Positions 45,534 to 61,737 are shown, counted from the first letter of the stretch. The stretch: DNA of 64,000 nucleotides from Candidatus Eremiobacteria bacterium (GCA_963737065.1 CAVTRC010000001.1:2272001-2336000); one strand, 5' to 3'. Program-made: numbers and translations. The notes: generated from the sequence alone by a model not told the origin.

Positions 45534-46821
45534 GCTGCGGGTGCCGGGACGCTGTGCGGTGCGCAGTAAACTTTGGCAGACGTTTCGCCATATCTTCCGG
45601 CATGATCGCATCGATCGCGTCATCGACCGTTACGATGCCGAGCATCTTTCCGGCTTCATCGACGATCGGCACGGCGAGCAAGTCGTAGCGCGCAATCGTC
45701 GCCGCAACTTCCTCCGCTTCCGTATCGGGACGAAGCGTCACAAGATCCGTGTCCATGATCGCTTCGATCGATTCTTGCGGATCGGCGAGCAGCAGCCTGC
45801 GCAACGATAACGCGCCGAGCAGCATATCTTGCTTGTCGACGACGTAGAGATAGTAAATGAACTCCGACGCCGGCGCGATCTCGCGGATTTTGCGAATCGT
45901 CGCTTCCGCCGTACGATGCGGATAGATCCACGTGTAGTCCGTGGTCATCAAACCGCCCGCCGTATCTTCGGCGTATTTGACGAGTTCGCGCAACTCGCTT
46001 GCCGTGTATTCGTTCATCTCCGCGAGCAGCTCTTGTTGTTGCTCCTCATCGAGTTCGGCGAGCAGGTCGGCGGCGTCGTCGGCGTCCATTTCTTCGATGA
46101 TGTCGGCCGCGCGCTCCGTACCGATATCTTCGATCAGCGAGCGCTGCGTGTCCGCATCGAGGTGCTCGAATGCGTCCGCTGCGGTCTCGTCGTCCAGCTG
46201 ACTGACGACTGCGGCGGCTTCACGCGCCGAAAGATCTTCGATGATGTCCGCAAGCTCTGAAGGGTGCAGCCGCGATAGCTTGCTCTCGGCCACGGAAAGG
46301 CTCACTTGTGACGGATTGGTCTCGCGAATCGGCGATACGGAATCCCACGCGATCATCGAGCGCGGAATCGAACGATAAATTCCCGGCGTAAACCGCTTGC
46401 CGAACGACTTGAGACCGAGACGGCGCAGCAAGCCGCCGACGCCGACGTCAGCCGCAACGACGCGCATCGCATCGCCGGCTTTTGCGATCTCGATGTCGTT
46501 GATGCGCACGACTTTGCGGCCGTCGACGTCGACGATCTGCTTGTCGAGCAAATCGGCGATGAGGTAGAGCGCGTCGCGTTCCGGCGGCGCCGGCTCCTTC
46601 GGCGTGAGGCTGAGCGCGATCTCGCCGTCGTCGATATCGGAGACCGTGTCAATCGGCGCAAAGCGCGGACCTTGCGTCGTCTTGATCACCAGTCCGTCGA
46701 TCTTCGGAAAGACGTCCTCGGGCTTATTGACGAGAAAGTCGCTGACTTTGCCGATCGGTATCTGATTGACGGTCGCTTTGCGCCCGACCAATTCCGAAAC
46801 AAACCCCTCGGTAAATGCCAT
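45514..46821 (-). CDS. MgtE cytosolic-domain protein (PRC-like + MgtE-N + CBS pair, no membrane domain)
   Basis: LLDKQIVDVDGRKVVRIND, LHPSELADIIE, MDADDAAD, YAEDTAGGLMT, YDLLAVPIVD, GIVTVDD. Ends without TM helices. Confidence 0.88.
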   Translation of the reverse strand: MAFTEGFVSELVGRKATVNQIPIGKVSDFLVNKPEDVFPKIDGLVIKTTQGPRFAPIDTVSDIDDGEIALSLTPKEPAPPERDALYLIADLLDKQIVDVDGRKVVRINDIEIAKAGDAMRVVAADVGVGGLLRRLGLKSFGKRFTPGIYRSIPRSMIAWDSVSPIRETNPSQVSLSVAESKLSRLHPSELADIIEDLSAREAAAVVSQLDDETAADAFEHLDADTQRSLIEDIGTERAADIIEEMDADDAADLLAELDEEQQQELLAEMNEYTASELRELVKYAEDTAGGLMTTDYTWIYPHRTAEATIRKIREIAPASEFIYYLYVVDKQDMLLGALSLRRLLLADPQESIEAIMDTDLVTLRPDTEAEEVAATIARYDLLAVPIVDEAGKMLGIVTVDDAIDAIMPEDMAKRLPKFTAHRTASRHPQHAGVGN

Positions 46822-47330: not shown

Positions 47331-48008
47331 CTATTGCGCAGTTGGTACGGGATCGACCGTATCGAGATAGTTCGCAACGTAGAATTCGTAGAAGTGTCCG
47401 TTTTTGAACGACTGCGGATTCACAAGCGGCGGGAACTGCCACTGCGTCGCGGTGACTTGCGCCGGGCCTGCAATTGCTCCGACCTCGATACCGCTCCACG
47501 ATACGTCGATTCGTACGATATACAAATCGCCGGTCGATCCGCCGGGCGTTGACGTCGGACTGGGCGTTGGCGTCGGCGGAACCGTTTGAAATGCCATCGG
47601 CTTCAACGCGTCGGGTTCGTCGTTACGGCCGTCATGCAGCGTGCACGCGGGCAGTACGCTCGTGAGGTTCTGCAGCGAAAACGGCGCGTCCGAGTAGTAC
47701 CATGGGCCGAGCAGTGCCGTAGTCGGGTAGCACCTCGTGTACCAGCTCACGACCGCGAACGTTCCGTCGTTTGCAATGGTGAGCGGATCGTAGAAGTCCC
47801 AGCGCGGACGGCCGTCCCGATCCATGGATATGCGCGAGTTCGAGAGCGCCGGTATCGACGGCGCACTGGTCTGCGGCTTCAGATGGTGAACGGCCGGTGC
47901 AACGTTCCCGCTGCTGCCCGACATCGATGAAGTGCTGCCGCCGCAAGCGGCCAAAACCGCGAACGCTAATGCAGCAGACGAGAAGAGACGCGCGCGTTCG
48001 AGAAACAT
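47331..48008 (-). CDS. Lipoprotein of unknown function (paralog B)
   Basis: Lipobox LAAC after ATG 48008 with GGAAGGA upstream. Extensive identity to the neighbouring gene. Confidence 0.8.
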   Translation of the reverse strand: MFLERARLFSSAALAFAVLAACGGSTSSMSGSSGNVAPAVHHLKPQTSAPSIPALSNSRISMDRDGRPRWDFYDPLTIANDGTFAVVSWYTRCYPTTALLGPWYYSDAPFSLQNLTSVLPACTLHDGRNDEPDALKPMAFQTVPPTPTPSPTSTPGGSTGDLYIVRIDVSWSGIEVGAIAGPAQVTATQWQFPPLVNPQSFKNGHFYEFYVANYLDTVDPVPTAQ

Positions 48009-48122
48009 ATGTATCCTTCCACGGAGCGCCGTTCTGGTTATCGACCTGGCGGATGTAAGCCTGCTCCGTAAACCGGCGCGCATCAAAAGAAACGGTAAAG
48101 GAGCCGTGTTAAATGTAAACGC

Positions 48123-48812
48123 TCAGCGTGCGAGCGGCACCGGGTCGTTCGTGTCGAGATACTTCGCGACGTAGAATTCGTAATAGTGACCGCTCGTAAA
48201 CAGCTCGCGATTGACGAGCGACGGAAATTCAAACGTTGTTGCGCTCACGTTTGCCGGACCGGCGATCGCCGCGACCTCAACGGAGCGCAACGTCATGTCG
48301 ACGCACACGATGTACACGTTCTCCGGAGATTCTGTCGGAATCGGGATCGGCGCTACGGTCGGCGTCGCTGTTGGAACGGGCGTCGGTGGAACGGTTTGGA
48401 AGCGCATCGGCAGACGCGCCTCGCTCTCCGGGATAACGGGGGTCGCATACAACGCACATCGTGCGAGTGTCGTGATCGCCGGGTTGGCCAATGACGATGT
48501 TCCATACGCCAAATACCAGGGGCCATTGAGACCTGACGTCGGATAGCAGGCGGCATAGGAAAAGGTCACGGCCAACGTGCCGTCGCTCGCGAAAGTCAAC
48601 GGCTGATAGAACCTCCAGCGAGGCGTCCCGTTCGGGCCGTTCGATAGCGCTGATGCCGTGAGCAAACCGGATCGCGGCGCGGCAATGGCGACGAGGCCCC
48701 CCTCCTGCGTGATGCGGGGCGCATCGGGCGCGGAAACATTACGGGCGCATGCGGCGAGAATCGCTGCAGCGAGCATCACAAAGACGGCGACACGTAACGG
48801 AACGGCTGACAT
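48123..48812 (-). CDS. Lipoprotein of unknown function (paralog A)
   Basis: Lipobox LAAC, SD GGAGG. Shares PRWxFYxPLT, CYPT, GPWY, FQTVPPTP, AIAGPA and YEFYVAxYLDT with paralog B. Confidence 0.8.
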   Translation of the reverse strand: MSAVPLRVAVFVMLAAAILAACARNVSAPDAPRITQEGGLVAIAAPRSGLLTASALSNGPNGTPRWRFYQPLTFASDGTLAVTFSYAACYPTSGLNGPWYLAYGTSSLANPAITTLARCALYATPVIPESEARLPMRFQTVPPTPVPTATPTVAPIPIPTESPENVYIVCVDMTLRSVEVAAIAGPANVSATTFEFPSLVNRELFTSGHYYEFYVAKYLDTNDPVPLAR

Positions 48813-48930: not shown

Positions 48931-50271
48931 TTATGCGATGAGTGCTTGGATCATGAGCGCCGCGACCTCACGCGAGTCGAGTTCGTACTGAGAGAGAACG
49001 CTCGTCGCTACTTGCGTGAGGATTTGTTCGCGCGTGAATGCCGTCACGGCTGAGCCGACATTCAAATCGCGGATAGAAGACTCCGATGACGTCAGATTCA
49101 CCGCCGCGACATTGTCGCTGTTCGAATCTTCTTGCGTGGACACCATCTGCGCACCGATCTGAGCGCGCACTTGCGAAATCTGGTCGAGTGCGTTTTGCAC
49201 GCGTAACTGCGCGTCCATCGCTGCCCATTGGTTGCTCGAATCGACCCCTTGCGTGTTGTCAAACTGGTCGACCATCGTCGGACGCAAGACGGAGATGTCG
49301 CTGACCTGCAACGCGTTCGTCGAGAGCGTCGGCAACGAAATTGCAACCGTGCCACCCTCGGTACCGGAGTCGTTGATATTGATCGCCGTGCCGCCGCCCG
49401 TTGCCCGGGGATCGAGGATGAAGATCCCTTCCGCAACTCCACCTGCGTCTTGCGGCGACAAATTCGCGAGGTTCACGGTCAAACCGTATCCTGAGGGCAT
49501 TGAAATATTGACGGGGCTTCCACCGCCCCCGAGATTCGGGCCGGCATTGACCGGCACTCCCGGTTGAACTTGTATGGATTCCGTCCCGTTGTTTGCGAAC
49601 GACGGATCGGTGCTGTACATGTCTTGTTCGAACGTCAGTGAACCGGTCGCTGCATCGTAGTTTTCGAGCTTAAACACGAAGACGCCGGTGAAGTGTTGGC
49701 CGGGCGCCTCGATCGTTTGCGAGTTCGGGTCGAACATGAGAGGACTCGATAGCTGCGAATTCGCGACGTCCGGAGTCGCTGCGTTACCGTCTGGTGCTTG
49801 ACCGGGATTGATCAGTTGCACGACGACGGGCGCGTTTGGCGCGGCAACATACGTGTCATGCGATCCGTCGAACAGTTTTACGCCGTTAAAATTCGCACTC
49901 GAAGAGATGTGGTTGATCTCTTTGAGCATCTGATCGATTTCAGTCTGAATCGCACTGAGCTGTTCGTTGGAATTGATGTCGGAGTTTGATTCGATGACTA
50001 GCGAATTCACGCGTTGCAGAATCTGCTGGATCTGCGCCGCGGCGCCGTCGGCAACCGCCAGAAGGTTTCCACCGGTTTGGACGTTTTCGACCGCTTGTTG
50101 CAGGCCGCTAACGCGCGTTTGCAAGCTCTCTGAGATTGCAAGGCCACTCGGATCGTCGGCGGCATTTTCAATCCGTAAACCGCTCGAGAGTTTGCTCGTG
50201 AGCGAAGACAGATTGTCCTGGTGCTGGCCGAGGTTGTAGAGGATGTTATCCATTCCGTTCGTGATGTTCAT
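48931..50271 (-). CDS. fliC: Flagellin (divergent termini)
   Basis: KLSSGLRIENAADDPSGLAIS, QILQRV, IQTEIDQM, FNGVKL. C-terminal RAQIGAQM, ESSIRDLNV, QILTQ. Confidence 0.88.
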   Translation of the reverse strand: MNITNGMDNILYNLGQHQDNLSSLTSKLSSGLRIENAADDPSGLAISESLQTRVSGLQQAVENVQTGGNLLAVADGAAAQIQQILQRVNSLVIESNSDINSNEQLSAIQTEIDQMLKEINHISSSANFNGVKLFDGSHDTYVAAPNAPVVVQLINPGQAPDGNAATPDVANSQLSSPLMFDPNSQTIEAPGQHFTGVFVFKLENYDAATGSLTFEQDMYSTDPSFANNGTESIQVQPGVPVNAGPNLGGGGSPVNISMPSGYGLTVNLANLSPQDAGGVAEGIFILDPRATGGGTAININDSGTEGGTVAISLPTLSTNALQVSDISVLRPTMVDQFDNTQGVDSSNQWAAMDAQLRVQNALDQISQVRAQIGAQMVSTQEDSNSDNVAAVNLTSSESSIRDLNVGSAVTAFTREQILTQVATSVLSQYELDSREVAALMIQALIA

Positions 50272-50504
50272 CGGCGCAAGCCTCCCGAGCGTGCGCGAGC
50301 GCGGTCCGAACGGTAGAGTCCGCGAACGCGAGCAGACTCAGTCGAGCGCGTGTGCTGGAGACGCTCGACGGTGACGTACGCATTCACCGGGCTGATGGAA
50401 ACGGATGAGAGAACGGTGCTGGGCGACGGAACAGCAGAAAACACGCGTACACTATCGCGATACGCGCGTTCAAACCGTCCTTGATTTATTCCCAGCACAT
50501 CCAT
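50268..50504 (-). CDS. Small hypothetical protein (78 aa) translationally coupled to flagellin
   Basis: GGGAGG SD upstream, ATGA overlap with the flagellin start, downstream of a sigma28-like promoter. Confidence 0.55.
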   Translation of the reverse strand: MDVLGINQGRFERAYRDSVRVFSAVPSPSTVLSSVSISPVNAYVTVERLQHTRSTESARVRGLYRSDRARARSGGLRR

Positions 50505-50517
50505 GACCGAGGTCTGT

Positions 50518-50574
50518 TTCCTCCCTGAAACGTCCCTGTAGTATTCCTATCGGCTAAACCCGCCGAAAAGTTTC
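50518..50574 (-). promoter_or_regulatory. Sigma28-like promoter plus two CsrA-type sites
   Basis: GAAACTTT-N12-GCCGATAG (50574-50547). Leader contains ACAGGGACGU and UCAGGGAGGA, both matching CANGGANG. Confidence 0.65.
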
Positions 50575-50619
50575 CGCTAACCGCGCGGTTCCCCGTAAAA
50601 ACGCCGTTATCCCGAGACG

Positions 50620-53600
50620 ATGACGTTTAAGTACGTCATGAGGCGCTTCTCGAGCGAACGCGCGTTCGGCCGCGTTATCCAACTCTTCGGGCTCGCGCTG
50701 ATGGTCGTTTCGGCGACGGCGTTTTTTGCCACGCGCAATGTGCGCGCGGAAACGATCGAAACTGTCCTTCGGCAATCGGCGCAAGCGATGCACGCCGCAC
50801 TCGACGTGGCCGCGGCCCCTTCACCGTCGCCTTCGCCTACGCCAGAATCCGCTGCGATGGAAGACATCGGCGAACATTCCGGACTGATCGCCACGCCTGG
50901 TCCAAGCACGCCGCCGGTCATCTCGCACGGTGGGCGTCTTGAATACACTATTAATGGAAGCCTCAGCCTCGGGAACCGGTCGTCGGGAAGCACGCGGCTC
51001 GATGGGACGGGCGAAACGCTCGTTTCCAACGTGGCGGAAACCGACGGCTCCGTCGGGATGAATCTCGAGCTGCGCCGCCGCACCGCGATGACGACCACGG
51101 ATCTTCAGATTCCGCTCGGGATCTCGACGCAAGGCGCGCAGTACGGGTACGGCAATCTTTCGTATTCGACGCCAAAGTATACGCTGGGTTATGCCTCCAT
51201 TCCGATCGCGTTGCTCGGTCAACTGACGCTCGGTGCAACGCAGCGCGGTCCGTACATGACGGTGCCGTACGGAACGGGCGACATCTCGATGTTCGAGGGG
51301 TTCACGACCGGCGTCGATCAGGAAGGCCTACATTTATATGGTATGCGAGCCCGCCGGCTCTATGGACGGACGCTCATGGAGCTCGGCTACGTCTATAATC
51401 CGCAAGCGCCGCAAACGGGATCGGCCGGCACGGCATTTGTCGGGGTCGCGTATGCAAAGAACGCGTTGTCGGCGATTCTCGAAACAGCGGAACAACATCG
51501 CGAAACTCCGACCGGCGATCTTTCGCTGTTTTCGTCGCAGCTTCGCCTAGACGATGGACTGCAGCAGGGAACGTACTCGCTGACGCTTCGGGACATTCCG
51601 GAGCGGCTGCTGTCCTACAATGCCGGCGAACTCTCCGGCGACAAGCTCGCCGATTTTTCGTATCGTTCGAATGGCCGCGGTGCATTGGGGCTCGACTTCG
51701 CGCTCGAGAAGAGCAGCTATCTCGGCCAAGTTTCGTCGCAGGAGCGCTCGCTGCTCAACTATGATTTCACGACGGGCGCGATCGGCTACAGCGTCGGGTT
51801 ACAGAATCAGCGCATCGCGGGCAGTCCGACCGAGTGGTCGGGGCTCGGCTCGCTGCAGCTGTCGTTTCCGATTCGAAACGGTTACGGCGTCGCGAGCGCA
51901 CAGTTTGGTCGAACGACGGAAGACGGAACCGGTCCGGTTGGGACAGCGCTCTATAACGTTGCTCTCTCCCGGCAGTTCGGCTCGTACGTCGTCGGCGGCT
52001 CGTTGACGCGGCAAAACCAATCGAGTACGACGACGGGCTTTTCACGTCAGAGCACGGCCGCCGTATCGTTTCAACGCACGTTTGGCAAAACGTCGATCGG
52101 CTACCAATATCAACTTTCGCGAACGCAGTCGCCCGTCAGCGATGCGTTGCAGAGCTTTCCCGCGTTCATCGTGCAGCGGCAGATTTCGCCCGTCATCTCG
52201 GTTCAAGCGCAGTACAGCATCCAACACCTAAGCGACCCGATCAATCCGGGATCGAACGGAACGTCGCGAAACTTCAGCATTCAGTTGAATGCACCGTTTG
52301 CCGTCGGAAATACGAACGTCGAAGGACGAACGGATCCGCGCTTGCCCGCGATGATCGAAGGGCGCATCACGGCGGATCTAGGCAACAACAACGCGCTCGC
52401 GGGCCTTTTAACCGGCGGACTGGGCAATATCGTCGTCGTTCTCGACAACACGCAAATTCAACGCACCGACTTGCAAGGCAATTTTCAGTTTTCGTACGTG
52501 CGTCCCGGCTCGCATCAATTACGCGTCGAGACGGCGTCGCTTCCGCGCGGCTATACCGTCGATCAACCGATCGTTACGCTGAACCTCGACGGCGGACAGA
52601 CCGCGCAAGTATATCTTCGCGTCGGCGATTTCGGCGGTATCGTCGGTCACGTGTTCGGCACCGATGCGAACGGCCAACGCATTCCGCTCGCCGGAGTAAA
52701 GCTGCGGATCGACGGCGGCCAGTACGCGCAGACGGATCAGCAAGGCATCTACGGCTTTGGGCGCCTTCTCTCCGGCAGCCACACGATCGAGATCATCGAG
52801 AACACCGTACCGGCCTTTGCGTCGTTCGACGAAAAATCCGTGAAACGGGACGTTAGCGTTCAGCGCGGTTCAACGGCAACGCTCGACTTCGTCGGCGAAC
52901 AGCTGGGATCGATTACCGGCAAAGTCGTCTATGATGCGACGCTCGCGCCCAATTACACGGGTCCGGTCATGAATGCATACGTCGTTGCAGAACCGGGAGA
53001 GCACGCAGCGATTACCAACGACGACGGCACGTTTTTGATCGACGACCTTCCCCCGGGTGACTACACCGTGTCGGTTGATCCGGAAACGGTTCCGGAGGAA
53101 ACGGGACAGCTCGGCGATCCTCTTTCCGTTGTGTTAAAGGGCAACGATAATTATCGCGGCGCGCTCTTCCTCGTCGGCCACGCCGTAAAGAAGGTCGTCT
53201 TCAGCCTTCTCTCTGGCGGTGCGGTGCCGGCAAGTCTCCACGTAAGTGAAGGCCGGTTGCCGCCGGGTGGTGCGACTGATGTTAGCGTTACTGCTCCCGC
53301 GGACGCTCACACCGTCACCGTATCGGGGCTCGGCGACGACGTCGACTTGAGCTTTGATGCAAAACGAAAGGAATGGACCGGCACGGTTCTCGTTCCATCG
53401 AAGGCGGCCGCCGGCACCGTCACGTTGACCGCTTCGGTCAGGCAGACGTCGGGCTCGATTGCGACCGCGACGGCAAAGGTCGTAATCGATCCGAAGTTGC
53501 CGATCGCGATCGTTCAATTGATTCCAGCGAATGCGGCGATCGGATCGTTCGCCGCCGCGCGTGCACGATTTCTGGTTGACGCGCGTCCCGGCGACAAGAT

Positions 53601-53742
53601 CGACTGGGAGGACGGACAGGAAACGGTTCTGGGCAAGCCCGTCGTCGGGCGCATCTTTACGTTCAGCCTGCGTCTTTCTTTACGCCCTCTGCATGGAGTG
53701 CTCCTAACCAAGACTGCTCGCTTGCCGATAAGCATTATGTAA
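50620..53742 (+). CDS. Putative outer-membrane usher-like protein (beta-barrel followed by repeated Ig/SdrD-B/carboxypeptidase-regulatory-like domains)
   Basis: Signal peptide, then several hundred residues of alternating amphipathic strands. Three GxIxG...TDxxGx(F/Y)xF...PG-type modules follow. Operon context with chaperone and pilin-like genes. Confidence 0.72.
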   Translation: MTFKYVMRRFSSERAFGRVIQLFGLALMVVSATAFFATRNVRAETIETVLRQSAQAMHAALDVAAAPSPSPSPTPESAAMEDIGEHSGLIATPGPSTPPVISHGGRLEYTINGSLSLGNRSSGSTRLDGTGETLVSNVAETDGSVGMNLELRRRTAMTTTDLQIPLGISTQGAQYGYGNLSYSTPKYTLGYASIPIALLGQLTLGATQRGPYMTVPYGTGDISMFEGFTTGVDQEGLHLYGMRARRLYGRTLMELGYVYNPQAPQTGSAGTAFVGVAYAKNALSAILETAEQHRETPTGDLSLFSSQLRLDDGLQQGTYSLTLRDIPERLLSYNAGELSGDKLADFSYRSNGRGALGLDFALEKSSYLGQVSSQERSLLNYDFTTGAIGYSVGLQNQRIAGSPTEWSGLGSLQLSFPIRNGYGVASAQFGRTTEDGTGPVGTALYNVALSRQFGSYVVGGSLTRQNQSSTTTGFSRQSTAAVSFQRTFGKTSIGYQYQLSRTQSPVSDALQSFPAFIVQRQISPVISVQAQYSIQHLSDPINPGSNGTSRNFSIQLNAPFAVGNTNVEGRTDPRLPAMIEGRITADLGNNNALAGLLTGGLGNIVVVLDNTQIQRTDLQGNFQFSYVRPGSHQLRVETASLPRGYTVDQPIVTLNLDGGQTAQVYLRVGDFGGIVGHVFGTDANGQRIPLAGVKLRIDGGQYAQTDQQGIYGFGRLLSGSHTIEIIENTVPAFASFDEKSVKRDVSVQRGSTATLDFVGEQLGSITGKVVYDATLAPNYTGPVMNAYVVAEPGEHAAITNDDGTFLIDDLPPGDYTVSVDPETVPEETGQLGDPLSVVLKGNDNYRGALFLVGHAVKKVVFSLLSGGAVPASLHVSEGRLPPGGATDVSVTAPADAHTVTVSGLGDDVDLSFDAKRKEWTGTVLVPSKAAAGTVTLTASVRQTSGSIATATAKVVIDPKLPIAIVQLIPANAAIGSFAAARARFLVDARPGDKIDWEDGQETVLGKPVVGRIFTFSLRLSLRPLHGVLLTKTARLPISIM

Positions 53743-53772
53743 CTCGCTTACCCGCTTATGCCACGGAGGGCA
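53705..53772 (+). promoter_or_regulatory. Internal sigma28-like promoter and CsrA-type hairpin for the major subunit gene
   Basis: TAAC(53705-53708)-N15-GCCGATAA(53724-53731). TGCC-ACGGAG-GGCA hairpin at 53759-53772. Confidence 0.6.
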
Positions 53773-53795
53773 ATCTTGCGCATGGTGAAAGGTCG

Positions 53796-54476
53796 ATGAA
53801 CCAAAAACGTATTGCAGGGCTCGCGCTAATCGCGTCCCTTTTCGCGCTGGCGGCCCCCGCAAATGCGGCGACCGTCAATAAAACGATCACGGTCAAGTGG
53901 AACACGCAGGCAACGGCCACGCTGAACGTCCATACGAACTACGCTGCATCCGGTCTGTCGAACAGCCCTGGCACGGCCGGTTCGATTCTAGCCCACGGCG
54001 CCGGCGCTTGTACCGCAGCCGACCCGACGAATTCGGACGGTACAAACGACTTCGGTCAAGTATCGCCTGACGGCGGCGGCGGCATGCAGGACTGCCTGTA
54101 CAAAAACGCAGCCAATGCGATCGTCGCGACAAACTCGACGAACTGGAATCTCACGGCAGCGACGGCCACGAACCCGACGACACTCGGCGCTGAGCTTTGC
54201 GCATTGGCGAACGGTGTCGCGAACTTCCCGTTCAGCGCGGCCGCGCTGCCGGTTACGCAAACGGTTCGTGCGGCAGCACTTTCCAGCGCATCGACGGCGA
54301 GCTGCGTGTCCGGCAGCGTGCTGAACAACACCGCTCTGACGCTTGCGAACGAAACGAACGCGTTCACCGGTGCCAGCCCGGCGAATATCGGGTTCGATCT
54401 CGATCTCGTTCTCGGACCAACCGCGAACACCGGTAACCAGTCGGAAGTCGTGACGTTCACGCTCACGGCGAACTAG
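53796..54476 (+). CDS. Putative major fimbrial subunit
   Basis: Signal peptide ending ANA, alternating N-terminal strand TVNKTITVKW, DFG motif, four Cys, C-terminal GNQSEVVTFTLTAN. Confidence 0.7.
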   Translation: MNQKRIAGLALIASLFALAAPANAATVNKTITVKWNTQATATLNVHTNYAASGLSNSPGTAGSILAHGAGACTAADPTNSDGTNDFGQVSPDGGGGMQDCLYKNAANAIVATNSTNWNLTAATATNPTTLGAELCALANGVANFPFSAAALPVTQTVRAAALSSASTASCVSGSVLNNTALTLANETNAFTGASPANIGFDLDLVLGPTANTGNQSEVVTFTLTAN

Positions 54477-54500
54477 TTCGTAAAGGTTACACTCTTTACT

Positions 54501-54540
54501 CGCTTCGCCGCGGGACGCGCAGTGCATTCGCGGCGAAGTG
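54501..54540 (+). other. Strong intergenic stem-loop after the major subunit gene
   Basis: CGCTTCGCCGCGG / TCGCGGCGAAGTG, a 13-bp stem with G-U pairs and no long U tract. Confidence 0.7.
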
Positions 54541-54551
54541 TTCGGGTCACA

Positions 54552-55349
54552 ATGCAAAATCGACGAATCGCACTCTTTGCGTTCATCTTTGCGGCGGTAC
54601 TTGTCGTGCCAAACCGGGTCAGTTCGGAAGGCCTCGGCATCGAAGTCACGCCGGCAAAACTCGAAGTGCAAATTGGACCGGCCGCAAGTTATAACATCCC
54701 GGTTACGGTTCGCAACTCTTCCAGTGATTCGACCCACGTACAGGCCACGATGGTGGACTTCGGCGTGTCGACGAACGGAAGCTACGAGTTTGGACGCGTC
54801 GGAGCGCGGCCGTTCTCGCTGATGAAATACGCAGCGATCCGCCCTCGTGAATTCGACTTGCCCGCGGGAACCACGCAACAGGTTCAACTCACGATCGTGA
54901 TGCCGAACGATTCAAAGCTTTCTGGTGAATACGCCGGAATCGTCTTCTTCCAAACGCGGCCGATTCGGCGCGCCGGTTCGAACGTGGCGTTTTCCGCCCG
55001 CGTCGCATCGAAGATTTACGAAGCAATTCCGGGCAGCGTCAAAATCGACGGTGCAATCACCAAGATGGTCAGTGCAAAGAGTGGACGCGGCCAAGTGTAT
55101 CGCGTGAGCTTTAAAAACACCGGGAACGTTCACGTCTATCTCCGTGGGCAAGTAACTATCCAGAAGAGCGGCCAAGTCGTCGATCAAGTTGCAATGGAAA
55201 ACGGCATGCTCGTCGAGCGCGGCGGAGACCGCATCGTCGAGGTGACGGGAAAGAAACTTCCTCCGGGACAGTATCAAGCGATTGCGACAATGGACTACGG
55301 TGGCCAAACAGAAACCGGCGGCGAGATTCAGTTTAGCGTTGAACGATAA
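54552..55349 (+). CDS. Putative periplasmic pilus chaperone (PapD-like/DUF916-like two-Ig-domain protein)
   Basis: GIEVTPAKLE, VTVRNSS, PREFDLPAGTTQQVQLTIVMP, GEYAGIVFF, FKNTGNVH, LPPGQY. Confidence 0.75.
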   Translation: MQNRRIALFAFIFAAVLVVPNRVSSEGLGIEVTPAKLEVQIGPAASYNIPVTVRNSSSDSTHVQATMVDFGVSTNGSYEFGRVGARPFSLMKYAAIRPREFDLPAGTTQQVQLTIVMPNDSKLSGEYAGIVFFQTRPIRRAGSNVAFSARVASKIYEAIPGSVKIDGAITKMVSAKSGRGQVYRVSFKNTGNVHVYLRGQVTIQKSGQVVDQVAMENGMLVERGGDRIVEVTGKKLPPGQYQAIATMDYGGQTETGGEIQFSVER

Positions 55350-55452
55350 CGCCGGCTTCTAAACAACCTAGATCGCTACGGTCTGCGCTAAGGGAAGTGC
55401 GCAGAGCCTCTTGGAGAGCACAAGGATCGTGTACGCAGCGCTTGTCAGAAGG

Positions 55453-56106
55453 ATGGTGTACGGAATCGTTGCGTTTGCAACGGCGGCGCTAAGCCTTGCG
55501 CCAGCGTTTGCATCGACCGCAATGGACGTCACTAAGGTCAAATGGAGCGCGATGCCGATCGTGCACTTCACGCTAACGCCGAACTATGCGTCCGGATTCG
55601 GCTCGGTCAAGGCGACCTTTGGAACGCAACCCGCGCCAACGCATGGTCCCGATGCACTTCAAAACAATGGAGCGGTCGATTTCGGTTCGGTCCTCGGTGG
55701 AACGACGTACCTTTACAAGTACGCCGCGCACGTTAACGTGACGACGAACGACCCAATGGGTTTCTTCGTGTACGCCGAAGGCGCCGCGGACTTTTTTAAC
55801 ACCGCTGATAGCTCGACGCAGCCGCTGAATTCGACGCTCTACTATCTTCAGTCGACGAGCGGTTCACCGCCGGACCCGAACACGGGATTTTCGGCGGCGC
55901 TTCCCTTCTATCGCACGGGTTCCGTCGTCACCGGCGGCAGCCAGTTCACTGCACCGACGATTTCCTACACGACGTATCCCGCACCGGTCGCAACCGCGAT
56001 GAGCGCAAACGGCGACTACTACTTCGACTATCAACTGCGCGTGCCGGGTGCAGCCACGCGCGGTCTCTATTACGTTTGGATCGTCTATACGGTGGTGGCG
56101 CGGTGA
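55453..56106 (+). CDS. Putative minor fimbrial subunit, paralog of the major subunit
   Basis: Signal peptide ending AFA. Shares VKW, NYA, GxxDFGxV, LYKxAA, VxTN and the terminal G...YTVVAR. Confidence 0.7.
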   Translation: MVYGIVAFATAALSLAPAFASTAMDVTKVKWSAMPIVHFTLTPNYASGFGSVKATFGTQPAPTHGPDALQNNGAVDFGSVLGGTTYLYKYAAHVNVTTNDPMGFFVYAEGAADFFNTADSSTQPLNSTLYYLQSTSGSPPDPNTGFSAALPFYRTGSVVTGGSQFTAPTISYTTYPAPVATAMSANGDYYFDYQLRVPGAATRGLYYVWIVYTVVAR

Positions 56107-56822
56107 AAAAGCTTCGCTACCTCTTTTTGATCTTCGCATTCCTAGCGGCCGCGCCGATCGTCGTTGAAGCCGCGCTGCAAAGTCAGCAGGCGCAGATCGC
56201 CGTTACGATCATCGTGAACGTGACTCCCAACCCACTCGGCTACACTGGAAAACCGGCGATCGCCGGCAACCAAATCGTGGCAACAGCGAAGCTGCGGGGA
56301 GCGCCTCCCGAGATCGAGCGCGTATTCGAAGCGCAGCAGCTCCATTTCGTTCCGAAAGGCGCTGAAATTGTCGCACAGGCGCAAGTTCAGCATGCGATAA
56401 AAGTTGAGGCCGAGGTCACTCCAAATCCGAATGCAACGCTTCTGACGTCCGATGCTTCCGGATATCAAGTGATCTTGAATGCGGAAGCCGGTACCCCGAC
56501 GTCGGTTCCGTGTGCGTATCATGTCCAGGTTAAGACGACGAAGACCGGATGGACGCTCAAGCATGGTCTTGCCGGAAACTTCAGCAATGGCGGAAGCGAC
56601 TCGTTCGTGGGCTCTAGCCTGGCGAATAACTCCCACGTCGGACCAACGCCGTTACCGACTGCAACGCCGTTCGTTGTTTATTCTACCGACGGCGGCGTGT
56701 GGGCAGTGCTTCAAACGAACAGCGGTACGCAAACGTATTGCGTCGATCTGACGCTCAACATGCCGATCACAACTGCTCAAGGAACGTATAGTTCGAATGC
56801 GATCTATACGTTGTACTACTAA
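56103..56822 (+). CDS. Putative minor fimbrial subunit/adaptor
   Basis: GTGA overlap, signal peptide ending VEA, Cys pair, C-terminal DLTLNMP...QGTYSSNAIYTLYY. Confidence 0.68.
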   Translation: MKKLRYLFLIFAFLAAAPIVVEAALQSQQAQIAVTIIVNVTPNPLGYTGKPAIAGNQIVATAKLRGAPPEIERVFEAQQLHFVPKGAEIVAQAQVQHAIKVEAEVTPNPNATLLTSDASGYQVILNAEAGTPTSVPCAYHVQVKTTKTGWTLKHGLAGNFSNGGSDSFVGSSLANNSHVGPTPLPTATPFVVYSTDGGVWAVLQTNSGTQTYCVDLTLNMPITTAQGTYSSNAIYTLYY

Positions 56823-59800
56823 TGTTTGCACGGAAGCTGCGCGGCGTTGTTGCGGGTGTATCGATCTTTCTTGCCGCGATATCGATCGGTCTTGCGCAAG
56901 TGCGGCCGCCGAGTCCGGTAGTTCACGGCGGGCAGCGGACCGTTCCGCGCCCGCTGATCACGGCATTGCCGCTTCCGGGTGCGACACCGGCTCCGGGCGC
57001 GACATCAACTCCCGCCTCGCATTTCGGTGCTCCGCTAAAAGGGTCGGGACGCGAGTATCCGGCTGGGACACGCGTCCCGCTTGCGGACCTTCCACGTCTG
57101 CCGATGAAAGCGTTGATTCCGACGATCAAAGCAAAATCGTATAGACAGCGGCATCCCTTCGCGCAGACCGGTGTAACGATCAACATCGTTTCGAGTACAT
57201 GCGCGAATCTCGTCGGCGATCTGTTCCCGACCGGCTGTAATCTGACGTTCAAAGCGGCAAGTTTGGCCGCCGGGAAGTACCAAGACTACGAGATCGCCCC
57301 GAACGCGACAACAGCGACGGCGGTCGGCGCTTCCTATACCAACACCGATTCGAATCGTACGATCGCTCTTACGAACGCCGGAGTCTACACGCTCGGCGTC
57401 TATGACGTAAACAATAACGATTGGGTCGCAGTCGTGTACGTCAACGCCGGAAACCCGGTGTTGCTGAAGGTCTATCAAGATCCGTACTTCTCGGAAGAGA
57501 CGTACCAATTCGATGCGTCGAGCAGCGGTGACGCGTACGTTCACATGACGAATCTTTCGGCGAACGATCTCTACGTCGTCGACATTGAATCGACATCGGT
57601 CCATCCGACGTGTGTTTTTTCCGCGCCGGCGCAAACGTCGATGCCGGCAAACACCCTGTGCAACCCGGGTAATTCGGCGGGAGAAACTGCACCCGGCGGC
57701 GTGCTCTCCGTTGCATGGCCGATCACATCCGCGCTCGGCGCGGGAACGTATTCGATCACGCTGTACGATAAATCCGTATCGCCGGCTCCCGGTCAGCGAA
57801 TCGCGCAAGTGCAGGTTTCGCTGACTGGTTCGAACGGCATCACGATGACGCTCAACGGTAACACGAACGGTTCGAACACGACGGTCAATCCGTCGCCGGC
57901 ACCCGCGGTGGTGCCGCAAGCGGCAACGGTATTCGCGTGGGACGATTCAAGCGAACAGTCCGTGTCCGGCGTTACGCTGGGTGTCGGAAGTTTGAGCGGC
58001 GACAAATATATTTGGTCGATCAACGATCCGACCGGTTATACGGCCGGTAAAGTCGGTCCGGTTACCTTGAATGGCATTGCGAGTCAAGGATTCACGTTCG
58101 GGACGATGGGCATCTACGGCCCGGGCGACTATCCCTCGCGAATCTTCACGGCGGGAATCTACGATTCGACCAGTCAGTCGATGTACGCCTCGCAGTCGTT
58201 CAAGGTCGTCGGCTACAACGCTGAAACCGCGTTCCATACGACGTCGGACGCATCGTCGCTGAGCGTCGCGCAGGGTTCGAACGCGACCGCAACGTTGAAG
58301 TTCACGAATTCCAGCGACCTCAACTACGGCGTTGGAAATGGCGACTCACTGGCCGGCATCGCGTACACGACCGGCCCCGACTTTACACCGCAGTCGGGTG
58401 GGTCCGGCACGGGTGTCGGTGTCATGATGGCGCTGGCCGGGAAGACGCTCGCGCAGTGTGTGATCCCCTCGGGATGCTCGACCACCGTAACGGATCCGAC
58501 GACCGGGTACGTGTGGAGCGTCAACGACTATTGCAGCGACAGCACCGTAACCACCACCGGCGAATGTTACCTGGTGATGTTGCCGCAGAGCAACGGCGTT
58601 TCATTACCGGTCGGTGACACGCTCACGATCCCGAACGTCACGTTTTATAATGCGACCGGCAGCGGTTGCAGCACGCAGTGCCAAGGATCGACGTCGATCT
58701 TGCCCTCGCACGGTGTCAAATGGTCGCGCATCGACACGCAGGAAGCGTTCTTTCCGACGTACTTCCAAAACGGCGCAACCACCTTAACCGGCACCGCGCA
58801 TCTGGCACTCGTGGGCTATCAAAACATCGGCGGCAGCAACAACCGCTTCACGTCGCCCGGCGTGCCGGAAGCGCATCTTTATCAGACACGCACGGTTCAC
58901 GCGACCTATGGATATCACAGTCCTTACGGGCTGACCAGCCAGGACTACATCATCTACGGTCTGACGGTCAATAACGGTGCATCATCTCAAACGATCAAGA
59001 CGGTTGCCGTGGCGCAACCCGGTCCGTTCTCAGGCGCCAACACGTTGAACAACGTCGCCGTCGACTCCAGCTCCAGCGGCAATAACGGCTGGGGTCTCGT
59101 CATCGGCGGACAGGCGCCATGTCAGAACCTCACGGCGGAATACTTCTGCGTCTACGCCAAGGGGACGAACCCTGGCGTCAAGGCGGGCAATTCGGCGACG
59201 ATCTACATCGATCAGAACGTCGCGCCGTTCAATTACGGTTACACCGACTGGGTCGTCTCGTCTGTGAATCCGAACTTCTCGATTACGGCAGACGGTACGA
59301 CGACGGTTCCGGTGAACAGTCCGTCGTTGTCGATCGATACGCTCGCGTTCGCGCAATACGCGCTCGACAGCTCGTCGATGTCGGCTTCGTTCGCACCGGG
59401 CACGGCCGGTCAAGGTGCGACGTCTACCGAAAATATCGTCGTCAGCAATGCATCGACGTCGAGCGATCCCAACCCCGACTACGTCGACGCCATTCTGATC
59501 GGTGTGCCGAACGGCGCGCCCCTCGTGAACGGAAATCCGACCACGTCGAGCACCGGCTGGTCGTACCTCGGGTCGTATAACGCCGGCAGCACGATCTACT
59601 ACTGGTTCGGCGTTTGTCCCAGTCAGTACACGAACGCGAACACGTATCTGCCGCCCGCGGCCACACCGAACACGTCGGTTCAAAACGCGCTGCCTCAATG
59701 TACGGCCGCACAGGAGAACAACTCGCTCGCGCCCGGCGGGACGTTCACCGGCACAATGGTGCTCAGCAACTTAAATAGCCCAAGCGTTAGCGTGCAGATG

Positions 59801-60889
59801 TGGGCGCACGGCGCCAACGGCGACGGCTGGTCGGCGCCGAAGACGATGACGTTGCCGGTATCGACCGTTACCGCGAGCGCCGGCTTCTCGAATGCCGGTA
59901 AATATGGCTCGCCGCCCGCGGTTGCGTCGAACACGGTGCCCACGATTGGCGGCAACAGCGACCCGTTGAACGGCAACTCGTACGTCTACACCGTGAAAAA
60001 CACCACGCAGGCGACGAACATTACGTCCTTCCGCGTACGCATCCCGGGTGTCGACGTCAGCGGAAACAACGCCTACGACGGCTCGAATGCCTGGCACGTG
60101 ACCAATGCAATTCCCACGCTCGGCGGAAACGTCGACGGCTGTACGATCACGAACGCGATTGCTGCGATGGCAGCTACGGCCGCTGGAGCAGACGGTGAAA
60201 TCGACGTCGGAGGAGCGAGCTGCAAATTGAAAGCGGGCGATACGATCACGTTGAGCTTCAGCGCGATCGGGCCCGAAGCGCAATCGGATTCCTATCCGTT
60301 CGATACCTACTGCTTGAACAATACGGCGGGTACGTGCACGGTGACGAACGGTTCGAATGCCGGCGAAAATTGGCTGGGCGACACGCGGGTTCAGGTGCAG
60401 TTGACGATCGGCTTGAACGTCGTGGTGGATCCCAGTAATCCGGGCCCAGGCAGCTCGACACCGGTCATCAGTTGTCCCGGATGTTCGTTCTCCGGTACGA
60501 CGGTCGACGTCGGAACGATTGGATCGAACTCGACGGGCGCGTTTACCGACATCGTTCGCGCGTCGATTTATATCCAGTCGAACACCACGGTGAACTACAC
60601 CCTCTCGGTGTCGGCGAATCAGAATCCGGCGAACAGCACCGGAACGCCGACGAACGAGTTGTTGACCGCGGTCGATCCGTCGAACTCAACGAGCGGTGCC
60701 GGCATCAACTTCGATCAAACCTCGTACGCCGTTGTTCCGACCGCGACTACGATGCAGGTGGCTCACGGTGCGAGCATCACGACGAGGAGCTTGCCGTACG
60801 ACGTTCTGCAAGACTTCCAAGTGTCGATCGGCAACGAATCGATTATGCCGCAGGCGTCGGTCGTTACGTATACGTTGATCGCGAACTAA
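56822..60889 (+). CDS. Large secreted adhesin-like protein (1355 aa) with C-terminal pilin-like domain
   Basis: Signal peptide, S/T/G/N-rich beta modules, 20 Cys in 10 local pairs. Ends GTTVDVGTI...DFQVSI...QASVVTYTLIAN, like the major subunit. Confidence 0.75.
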   Translation: MFARKLRGVVAGVSIFLAAISIGLAQVRPPSPVVHGGQRTVPRPLITALPLPGATPAPGATSTPASHFGAPLKGSGREYPAGTRVPLADLPRLPMKALIPTIKAKSYRQRHPFAQTGVTINIVSSTCANLVGDLFPTGCNLTFKAASLAAGKYQDYEIAPNATTATAVGASYTNTDSNRTIALTNAGVYTLGVYDVNNNDWVAVVYVNAGNPVLLKVYQDPYFSEETYQFDASSSGDAYVHMTNLSANDLYVVDIESTSVHPTCVFSAPAQTSMPANTLCNPGNSAGETAPGGVLSVAWPITSALGAGTYSITLYDKSVSPAPGQRIAQVQVSLTGSNGITMTLNGNTNGSNTTVNPSPAPAVVPQAATVFAWDDSSEQSVSGVTLGVGSLSGDKYIWSINDPTGYTAGKVGPVTLNGIASQGFTFGTMGIYGPGDYPSRIFTAGIYDSTSQSMYASQSFKVVGYNAETAFHTTSDASSLSVAQGSNATATLKFTNSSDLNYGVGNGDSLAGIAYTTGPDFTPQSGGSGTGVGVMMALAGKTLAQCVIPSGCSTTVTDPTTGYVWSVNDYCSDSTVTTTGECYLVMLPQSNGVSLPVGDTLTIPNVTFYNATGSGCSTQCQGSTSILPSHGVKWSRIDTQEAFFPTYFQNGATTLTGTAHLALVGYQNIGGSNNRFTSPGVPEAHLYQTRTVHATYGYHSPYGLTSQDYIIYGLTVNNGASSQTIKTVAVAQPGPFSGANTLNNVAVDSSSSGNNGWGLVIGGQAPCQNLTAEYFCVYAKGTNPGVKAGNSATIYIDQNVAPFNYGYTDWVVSSVNPNFSITADGTTTVPVNSPSLSIDTLAFAQYALDSSSMSASFAPGTAGQGATSTENIVVSNASTSSDPNPDYVDAILIGVPNGAPLVNGNPTTSSTGWSYLGSYNAGSTIYYWFGVCPSQYTNANTYLPPAATPNTSVQNALPQCTAAQENNSLAPGGTFTGTMVLSNLNSPSVSVQMWAHGANGDGWSAPKTMTLPVSTVTASAGFSNAGKYGSPPAVASNTVPTIGGNSDPLNGNSYVYTVKNTTQATNITSFRVRIPGVDVSGNNAYDGSNAWHVTNAIPTLGGNVDGCTITNAIAAMAATAAGADGEIDVGGASCKLKAGDTITLSFSAIGPEAQSDSYPFDTYCLNNTAGTCTVTNGSNAGENWLGDTRVQVQLTIGLNVVVDPSNPGPGSSTPVISCPGCSFSGTTVDVGTIGSNSTGAFTDIVRASIYIQSNTTVNYTLSVSANQNPANSTGTPTNELLTAVDPSNSTSGAGINFDQTSYAVVPTATTMQVAHGASITTRSLPYDVLQDFQVSIGNESIMPQASVVTYTLIAN

Positions 60890-60945
60890 CTGCTGCGCGG
60901 GGCGAGCGAAAGGAACGGGAAGCCGGCCATCGCACAGCAAGAGTC

Positions 60946-61737
60946 GTGAGCGATTCTCCGATCCGCCGCCCCGACCCGTTGACGGTCGCGCTTGACGCCG
61001 CGCGCGAAGCGGCAGCCGTGCTGCTCGATCATGCGCATCGTCCGCTGGAAATTGAAGAGAAAGGCCGTCGCGCGGACATCGTCACCGCAGCGGATCGCGC
61101 AAGCGAAGCGGTGATTTTGCGAACGCTTCGCGCGGCGTTTCCAAACGCGAGCGTCCTTGCTGAAGAGAGTGGCCGGTACGAAGGCACATCGGATGAACGA
61201 TGGGTCGTCGATCCGCTCGACGGCACGACGAACTACGCGCACGGCTATCCGCTCTATTGCGTCTCGATCGGGTTCGAACGCGCCGGCGAACTCCTTGCGG
61301 CGGTCGTATACGTGCCGACGACGAACGAGTGTTTTACTGCTGAACGCGGCGCCGGCGCGCGCCTGAACGACGCGCCTATCTCGGTATCCGACATCGACAA
61401 CGTTGCGCACGCGATGGTGTGCACGGGCTTTCATCCATCGGATTACCCGCGCAACGGCAAGTACTTCGAGGAAATGTCTTTCCATGCGCAGGCCGTGCGT
61501 CGCGACGGCTCGGCCGCGCTCGACTTGGCGAATACGGCGTGCGGAAGATTCGACGGCTTTTGGGAGTGGGATCTCAACCCATGGGACGTTGCTGCGGGGA
61601 CGTTGCTCATCACGGAAGCGGGCGGACGGGTCACGCGTATCGACGGAACGCCCGCGGCGCTCGACGCGCGTTCGATTCTTGCAACGAATGCAAGGATTCA
61701 TGCAGAGATGCAGGGCGTTCTTGCGGCCGTACAGTAA
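60946..61737 (+). CDS. suhB: Inositol monophosphatase family protein
   Basis: DIVTAAD, AEES, WVVDPLDGTTNY, GSAALDL, WDVAAG. GTG start at 60946. Confidence 0.92.
   Translation: MSDSPIRRPDPLTVALDAAREAAAVLLDHAHRPLEIEEKGRRADIVTAADRASEAVILRTLRAAFPNASVLAEESGRYEGTSDERWVVDPLDGTTNYAHGYPLYCVSIGFERAGELLAAVVYVPTTNECFTAERGAGARLNDAPISVSDIDNVAHAMVCTGFHPSDYPRNGKYFEEMSFHAQAVRRDGSAALDLANTACGRFDGFWEWDLNPWDVAAGTLLITEAGGRVTRIDGTPAALDARSILATNARIHAEMQGVLAAVQ

Follow-up and report, generated by a model that had tools for sequence, protein, structure and literature searches.

A predicted donor-strand-exchange surface fibre with a DUF916-type chaperone and an outer-membrane barrel, encoded by a six-gene operon of a Candidatus Eremiobacteria bacterium

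A six-gene cluster of a Candidatus Eremiobacteria bacterium, its genes named A to F here, occupies positions 50620 to 60889 of a 64,000-nucleotide stretch of DNA (GCA_963737065.1, CAVTRC010000001.1:2272001-2336000); this whole stretch is called the window, and positions are counted from its first nucleotide. We conclude that the operon probably specifies a donor-strand-exchange surface fibre of a diderm bacterium, built with a DUF916-type chaperone and an outer-membrane barrel. The evidence is wholly computational, and our confidence is above this overall level for the binding of B by C and below it for A as a translocation pore and for the roles of D, E and F. A preliminary description of the window had proposed a donor-strand-assembled pilus, and this is supported in silico: a membrane-type barrel is predicted for A, the modelled subunit B is not self-contained, and across Pfam, NCBIfam and PDB sequences none of the products matches any described fimbrial family over its full length. 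The further suggestion of a chaperone-usher-like system, perhaps a new clade, stands as regards the logic of assembly and fails as regards sequence membership, leaving an analogue rather than a demonstrated clade. The six genes are as follows.

50620-53742, + strand: gene A, 1040 amino acids (aa), putative outer-membrane assembly/secretion platform (usher analogue)
53796-54476, + strand: gene B, 226 aa, pilin-like, candidate major subunit
54522-55349, + strand: gene C, 275 aa, soluble periplasmic chaperone of the DUF916/WxLIP_PGBD superfamily, predicted to bind B
55411-56106, + strand: gene D, 231 aa, B paralogue, candidate minor/adaptor subunit
56076-56822, + strand: gene E, 248 aa, third small secreted protein
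56822-60889, + strand: gene F, 1355 aa, candidate tip adhesin

All six co-oriented open reading frames are present where the preliminary description had placed them, and all are secreted-protein genes, each product carrying a single N-terminal hydrophobic segment of the signal-peptide type, as had been claimed. The stop codon of D overlaps a GTG in the frame of E (GTGA, 56103-56106), the stop of E overlaps the ATG of F (TAATG), and the remaining intergenic gaps are 45-61 nt, so the junctions fit an operon. The GTG at 56103 is probably the true start of E; the resulting N-terminus resembles those of E orthologues. C is probably 265 aa in length, beginning at the ATG at 54552. A scan of 50000-61500 for promoter and terminator consensus sequences gave one promoter-like and 14 terminator-like sites, not above shuffled sequences (means 3.4 and 13.7). 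No C-terminal hydrophobic 19-mer, LPXTG motif or lipobox was found in any of the six products; Type V pili of the Bacteroidota kind were rejected as a candidate for lack of the lipobox.

The complex of C with B was predicted in three runs from mature C (residues 36-275) and mature B (residues 25-226), each supplied as an alignment. Its interaction prediction score from aligned errors (ipSAE) is 0.87, against 0.34 for the best control; when 157 solved complexes were scored, 116 attained the ipSAE mark used, as did 2 when 215 mismatched pairs were scored. At least 83% of the contacts are common to the runs, and the predicted local distance difference test score (pLDDT) of the partner is at least 84. 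The most confident contacts join C156-162 to B218-224, in register and parallel to the last strand of B. C41-43 runs antiparallel with B41-43, and C159-161 also touches B43. The strands of C concerned are these.

54627-54671, + strand: C residues 36-50, predicted A1-like N-terminal strand, antiparallel to the first strand of B
54960-55007, + strand: C residues 147-162, predicted G1-like donor strand, running parallel with B's C-terminal strand

Two adjacent strands of the first domain of C are thereby predicted to lie between and alongside the first and last strands of B, which is the geometry of donor-strand complementation, and a near-invariant T145-R146-P147-x-R149 precedes the donor strand. 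The models support the binding of B by C and agree with the chaperone-subunit complex expected in the preliminary description.

The subunits themselves form a family with the features that such a mechanism would use. Profiles of B and D are homologous over their full length (hhalign 99.1%, E 6.9e-19), and the last ~135 residues of F are homologous to residues 78-226 of B (hhalign 94%, E 9.5e-8). The C-termini read ...TYTLTAN in B, ...VWIVYTVV.. in D, ...SNAVYTLYY in E and ...TYTLI.N in F and are conserved in orthologues; the C-terminal signature that had been claimed for four products is found verbatim in these proteins. A GxxD(F/V)G motif, described earlier for three products, is indeed present in B, D and F. 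Its residues F86/G87 hardly vary across 26 B sequences, D90/F91/G92 do not vary at all across 27 of D, and a comparison of 13 C-termini of F shows F135/G136 to be conserved. Two regions of the subunits are of note.

53868-53915, + strand: B residues 25-40, candidate donor strand, an N-terminal extension with the consensus T-G-T-V-T-V-K-W-N
60485-60886, + strand: F residues ~1222-1355, C-terminal pilin-like domain homologous to B 78-226

Within the extension of B, W35 and N36 occur in 26/26 sequences, and the corresponding consensus of D is T-G-S-V-T-V-K-W, with the tryptophan in 25/27. When B is modelled as a monomer, residues 25-40 are devoid of secondary structure, and in the complex a strand of C lies against the first and last strands of B; both features accord with the earlier expectation of subunits that are not self-contained. 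On this pattern B 25-40 would act as a donor strand. The N-terminus of E also shows alternating hydrophobic residues (Q-I-x-V-x-I-x-V-x-V). B has four invariant or near-invariant cysteines and is the most variable component, with 28-53% identity among orthologues, while F has 20 cysteines and no Pfam family match. No Pfam family, Fimbrial and SCPU included, is consistently matched at E <= 1 in the 26 B or 27 D sequences, and searches of PDB sequences with the B and D profiles gave best E values of 0.23 and 0.61, which places B and D in an unnamed sequence family with a pilin-like fold. With the B model, Foldseek returned no PDB match at E <= 0.001; pilins of the chaperone-usher (CU) type are among the best structural matches, which are weak.

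The most serious alternative is that the locus is a chaperone-assisted display system for non-polymeric surface proteins. B, D, E and F would then be kept stable in the periplasm by C and be exported or anchored by A, whether singly as adhesins or as a surface layer, with no strand exchange from subunit to subunit. We consider this unlikely. It would account for the facts that the C:B complex is the only interaction actually predicted, that the structural matches of B are weak and that A has five additional beta-sandwich domains unlike those of ushers. However, the strictly conserved extension of B, unstructured in the monomer model, would have no evident purpose without exchange, and a B-like domain at the end of F is the layout of a tip adhesin. 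Moreover, the related DUF916 chaperone ElrE nucleates a donor-strand polymer, according to the part of the preprint drawn on here (Sleutel et al., bioRxiv 2026, 10.64898/2026.10.17.759780). These points favour an exchange-assembled fibre over display.

The family to which C belongs separates this system from the classical one. C matches WxLIP_PGBD/DUF916 (PF06030) over residues 49-143 (1.3e-5, 25.6 bits). Among 39 orthologues, at E <= 0.01, PF06030 is matched by 28 (best 2.1e-7), and PapD_N and PF11797 by none. These results support kinship of C at the superfamily level, as a soluble two-domain protein of the DUF916/WxLIP_PGBD superfamily and not a PapD, and they uphold the earlier remark that the chaperone is nearer to DUF916/WxL partner proteins than to PapD. 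A search of PDB sequences with the C profile gave nothing significant (best E 0.052). The family is very large, as an exhaustive profile search recovered 15,412 clusters (50% identity) at E <= 0.001, 6,408 at <= 1e-10 and 306 at <= 1e-30. Of the best 149 representatives (P0020 aside), 75 are ~260 aa long and 58 are tandem duplications of 450-620 aa. None of these 149 has a hydrophobic helix in its last 60 residues, and C itself has none outside the signal region. When 120 of the nearest representatives were scanned, 52 matched PF06030, four matched PF11797 and two matched PapD_N (at E <= 0.001). Named members come from Eremiobacterota, Candidatus Deferrimicrobium, Acidobacteriota, Aerophobetes and Abditibacteriaceae, and the names on relatives of C include Candidatus Eremiobacteraeota, Vulcanimicrobiaceae and Baltobacteraceae. 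Some C orthologues are labelled PapD or 'fimbrial biogenesis chaperone' in JGI and NCBI annotation; to that extent the databases have anticipated a chaperone here.

The tandem-duplicated C-like proteins (within P0144-P0285) match the C profile twice, and one of their clusters is named from Candidatus Aerophobetes.

Protein A was modelled with AlphaFold2 from an alignment of 29 sequences (pLDDT 80). The model begins with a signal-like helix and a disordered Pro/Ser-rich linker, which are followed by two regions.

50926-52308, + strand: A residues 103-563, large antiparallel beta-barrel, ~24-26 strands by DSSP, short loops, pLDDT ~90
52348-53739, + strand: A residues 577-1040, five beta-sandwich domains, three CarboxypepD_reg/SdrD_B-like and then two more

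The barrel ends in ...NFSIQLNAPF, which looks like a beta-signal. Between residues ~600 and 840, A matches CarboxypepD_reg (1.3e-12), SpaA and SdrD_B (9.7e-8), in agreement with the SdrD-B-like modules previously claimed for the usher, and its C-terminal ~170 residues are strongly conserved. The beta-sandwich domains would be periplasmic docking domains. Inverse autotransporters have a barrel of ~12 strands. The possibility that A is an adhesin of this kind, with an N-terminal barrel and an Ig-like passenger, was rejected on the basis of its ~24-26 strands and its strict linkage to C (see below).

Four observations weigh against a donor-strand fibre of this kind. The high C:B score may reflect the model's memory of solved chaperone-pilin complexes, the alignments being our own and the calibration rough. 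The score of C for PF06030 lies under the Pfam gathering cut-off (25.6 vs 27.3 bits). E is tied to the other subunits by its C-terminal motif of ~30 residues only, and weakly (4% against B, 55% against D). Finally, in the model of A neither a plug-sized insert nor an usher-type N-terminal domain is seen; the preliminary description had expected a barrel of about 24 strands with a plug, and of these the barrel is predicted and no plug is seen. On this model A is best termed an usher analogue, and its putative role follows from its size, its architecture of a barrel and then periplasmic sandwich domains, and its strict linkage to C, and not from homology.

These features of A and C also bear on whether the system instead truly belongs to the CU class, classical or archaic, and has diverged to an extreme degree, with A, C and B/D descended from an usher, a PapD-type chaperone and Csu/SCPU-type pilins, the sequence signal having been lost. 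Foldseek comparison of the A model to the PDB has FimD (E 3.9e-15) and PapC (4.3e-12) as its top matches over 770-860 aligned columns, but in comparisons of the barrel, porins score as high as ushers, so that its similarity ties with that to unrelated barrels. Descent from this class would likewise explain the CU pilins among the best structural matches of B, the PapD or fimbrial chaperone labels on some C orthologues, the two of 120 C relatives that touch PapD_N, and the one neighbour cluster of C in the ESM Atlas, where neighbours are feature-based, in which 27% of members have PapD_N. Set against these are the lack of any PF00577 match in A (E <= 1) or in the whole genome, and of PapD_N in C and its 39 orthologues, where DUF916 is the prevailing match, together with the B (26) and D (27) families that lack a consistent Pfam match and an A whose model shows no plug or N-terminal usher domain. 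We regard such descent as very improbable, and prefer a fibre whose chaperone is of DUF916 type and whose barrel is an analogue.

The source genome (3.08 Mb in 2 contigs, 95% complete) encodes an Omp85/BamA protein and LpxC, from which an outer membrane with lipopolysaccharide (LPS) is expected. Throughout this 95% complete genome there is no match to Usher (PF00577) or PapD_N (PF00345). Eremiobacterota, the phylum of this uncultured bacterium of soil type, are abundant in soils and have almost no cultured members.

Homologues of C were sought in 201 sampled genomes of the phylum Eremiobacterota and were found in 43, including 37 of the 113 genomes of the same family. Twenty loci around C matches were retrieved and searched with all six proteins. 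In 17 of them a single stretch of 19-20 kb holds counterparts of A, C and F together, and in 13 it holds homologues of all six, some in pieces, as would be hoped from the synteny suggested as a check in the preliminary description; of the others, one is truncated by a contig end and two (L048 and L049) contain only a distant C paralogue. The gene order is ABCDEF at eight loci, AFBCDE at two, BCDEAF at two and ABCFDE at one, and this variation points to selection on linkage and not mere inheritance of a single arrangement. The A barrel (residues 100-575) was detected in 36 of the 201 genomes, all 36 among the 43 with C and none among the 158 without it, a co-occurrence that is a pattern rather than a statistical test, the genomes being mutually related.

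The same linkage makes it least probable of all that these are neighbours lacking a common machine, with A a porin, a polysaccharide-export barrel or an adhesin in its own right and B-F unrelated secreted Ig-like proteins: a PEP-CTERM-associated outer-membrane protein family is among the language-model neighbours of the A barrel (score 0.92, again feature-based) and porins score level with ushers, but A is restricted to C-bearing genomes, adjoins C through four gene orders and pairs with a C-type protein again in Deferrimicrobiota, and starts and stops overlap at the D/E and E/F junctions.

That recurrence is on a Candidatus Deferrimicrobium contig (L054), where co-directional genes encode three small proteins (224, 230 and 193 aa), followed by a DUF916-like protein of 395 aa that matches PF06030 (6.8e-7) and lastly by a 749-aa protein. 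The second of the small proteins (230 aa) ends in ...LVTYTLTAN. In the 749-aa protein, SdrD_B/CarboxypepD_reg domains are preceded by an N-terminal region that is barrel-like in the appearance of its sequence; the protein aligns to the A profile (97%, E 5.6e-11) over 536 columns that include the barrel, although much of that score must be due to the shared C-terminal domains. These data suggest, without establishing it, that the type of system is widespread beyond Eremiobacterota, a claim based on this one full locus, from a search with the distant C relative P0204 that gave two loci, and on the names of cluster members. Word-filtered homology searches (for A, 7,999 candidates scored and 16 proteins recovered; for B, 40 proteins) give little indication of the true range.

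Several related arrangements were seen in the course of these comparisons. At L048 (6848-18019) and L049 (7948-12079), in the same phylum, one or two C-like genes are accompanied by proteins of ~200 aa that end in ...ITLTAN or ...ATATAN, a 1056-aa protein ending in ...LLLSAT, proteins of 719-756 aa that match no Pfam family and an 864-aa protein rich in Big_2; these may be a second type of the same machinery. They were rejected as examples of the same system, as the 719-aa protein aligns to A in one C-terminal domain only (72%). Elsewhere, two C genes stand side by side in one locus (L045 and L046-L047, in genomes G129 and G164), each beside its own B- or D-like gene, and G129 has six C-like matches genome-wide. 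In four few-contig genomes the A orthologue is in 2-4 pieces in different frames, one with an internal TAA (G198:C1:472648-474075, G195:C4:193463-194805, G115:C3:146045-147584 and G147:C2:284738-286055), which may represent pseudogenisation or frameshift errors of assembly.

A mechanism can be proposed from these elements. All six products would be exported by Sec, judging from their signal-like N-termini. In the periplasm C would cap each subunit, with its strand 147-162 running parallel with the subunit's C-terminal strand and its N-terminal strand on the first strand; such capping is predicted for B and would apply by extension to D, E and F. The chaperone-subunit complexes may then dock on the periplasmic beta-sandwich domains of A, and the fibre could exit through the barrel of ~24-26 strands. 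F, whose N-terminal part is large and rich in Cys and whose C-terminal domain is pilin-like, would enter first as tip adhesin. Polymerisation would proceed as each newly arriving subunit ousts the chaperone strand with its N-terminal extension (T-G-T-V-T-V-K-W, in B and D), a step suggested by the motif, by how well it is conserved and by its being disordered when the monomer is modelled. B would be the main subunit, with D and E as minor, adaptor or terminator subunits.

The flanking genes are unrelated to the operon, with a flagellin gene upstream on the opposite strand and an inositol monophosphatase gene downstream. The flagellin gene (48931-50271, - strand; Flagellin_N and Flagellin_C, with a central region of ~220 residues) is divergent from the pilus operon. 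Between it and a gene with MgtE_N and CBS domains are tandem paralogues at 47331-48086 (- strand, 251 aa) and 48123-48812 (- strand, 229 aa), both secreted-looking, which have the motifs ...RW.FY.PLT... and ...YYEFYVA.YLDT.DPVP... in common and match no Pfam family. The MgtE_N/CBS gene, also near the flagellin gene (45514-46821, - strand), encodes a 435-aa protein with PRC-barrel, MgtE_N and CBS domains, no match to the MgtE membrane domain and weak matches to FliG_M and FliG_N; it looks like a soluble protein of MgtE-N type and not a transporter.

Donor-strand pili have long been viewed as centred on the Proteobacteria, with a single family of ushers and a single family of chaperones. Two 2026 preprints describe, in the parts drawn on here, chaperone-guided pili without an usher, namely the WxL pili of Bacillota (10.64898/2026.10.17.759780) and the Pam pili of the Candidate Phyla Radiation (CPR; PMC13278184). 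If the present reading is true, the DUF916 chaperone lineage is not confined to Bacillota, contrary to the threshold-based WxL screen as given in that part of the preprint, and there is a second, independent solution to the passage of a folded fibre through the outer membrane. Eremiobacterota would also gain their first candidate for an adhesin or fibre. A target for annotation is offered by the A barrel, the B/D subunits and F, currently without family names. We raise as a tentative idea, one that we doubt more than we believe, that such fibres, environmental ones like TLP-1 possibly among them, could be common in uncultured lineages, given the size of the C family and its named members in several phyla; that diderms have here a pilus pathway of great age and wide occurrence that has yet to receive a name, in which a soluble DUF916-type chaperone is joined to a barrel turned 'usher' independently of FimD/PapC, and that the membrane-anchored WxL machinery of Bacillota is a monoderm derivative that arose after loss of the outer membrane.

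Among characterised systems, the CU pili (Fim, Pap, Csu/CupE) share with the system predicted here a periplasmic two-domain chaperone, donor-strand complementation, several pilin paralogues, a two-part tip adhesin and an outer-membrane barrel as large as that of an usher, with beta-sandwich domains C-terminal to it. An usher has a 24-strand barrel with a plug inside it, one domain at the N-terminus and two at the C-terminus. In the model of A, in contrast, no plug or N-terminal recruitment domain is seen and there are five C-terminal domains rather than two, and the locus has no sequence membership in Usher, PapD_N, Fimbrial (PF00419) or SCPU (PF05229). The predicted parallel pairing of the chaperone strand indicates a mechanism in common with CU pili and is not proof of ancestry.

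The WxL (Elr) pilus of Enterococcus faecalis and other Bacillota is closer in its chaperone. In the portion of the preprint available here, ElrE (DUF916/DUF3324) is shown experimentally to be a membrane-anchored donor-strand chaperone, and the geometry of donor-strand complementation is described for CU chaperones and for ElrE (10.64898/2026.10.17.759780). As in that account, the chaperone here is of the DUF916/WxLIP_PGBD superfamily, has a donor strand, in C a putative one, ending its first domain (ElrE 141-152; C 147-162) and is predicted to place this strand in parallel with the subunit's C-terminal strand. The subunits are likewise ~200 aa in length with an alternating N-terminal motif of donor type that closes with an aromatic residue, although the register of B and D is not identical to the WxL consensus, [S/T]-x-[G/A]-x-[V/I]-x-F (10.64898/2026.10.17.759780), and a large candidate tip adhesin, F here, carries a pilin-type domain at its C-terminus. 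There are also differences. C has no C-terminal membrane helix, a feature of 96.7% of WxL chaperones according to the same portion of the preprint, and it has no detectable PF11797 second domain, the WxL definition given there requiring both PF06030 and PF11797 above thresholds (10.64898/2026.10.17.759780). The WxL domain PF13731 is matched at E <= 1 by none of B, D, E and F and by none of 26 B and 27 D orthologues, and the LP.[TSA]G motif, a trait of WxL base subunits, occurs in none of the six products, the sortase itself not having been searched for. The host here is expected to have an outer membrane, and a large barrel protein is an extra component of its operon. A screen that applied Pfam gathering thresholds to 4,698 genera is reported there to place the WxL system in Bacillota only (10.64898/2026.10.17.759780); the C protein of the window falls under the PF06030 threshold that such a screen applies. 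As judged from titles and the beginnings of abstracts, the surface-protein papers among those listed for the DUF916/WxLIP/PF06030 literature concern Gram-positive bacteria, none of them a diderm system, and a search joining Eremiobacterota with pilus terms gave nothing relevant among the results listed.

The Pam pilus of the CPR similarly comes from a poorly studied lineage, but its PapD-like chaperones are membrane-anchored and no trans-envelope machine is proposed in the part of the preprint used here (Troman et al., bioRxiv 2026, PMC13278184), whereas C is soluble. In a comparison with the Pam-type pilin domain NF058581, E is the sole match and is below threshold (E 0.039, 14 vs 55 bits). 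For the environmental fibrils TLP-1a/b the donor is protomer n+4, and the producer and assembly genes are given as unknown in the part of the CryoSeek report seen (PMC11494351); no sequence similarity to TLP-1a/b was detected with the B or D profiles.

Most likely, then, the six genes encode a pilus that works like a chaperone-usher system yet does not fit, by sequence, the way in which the CU, WxL or Pam family is defined. It would stand between the WxL and Pam systems, combining a free periplasmic DUF916 chaperone with an outer-membrane barrel in an LPS-making bacterium.

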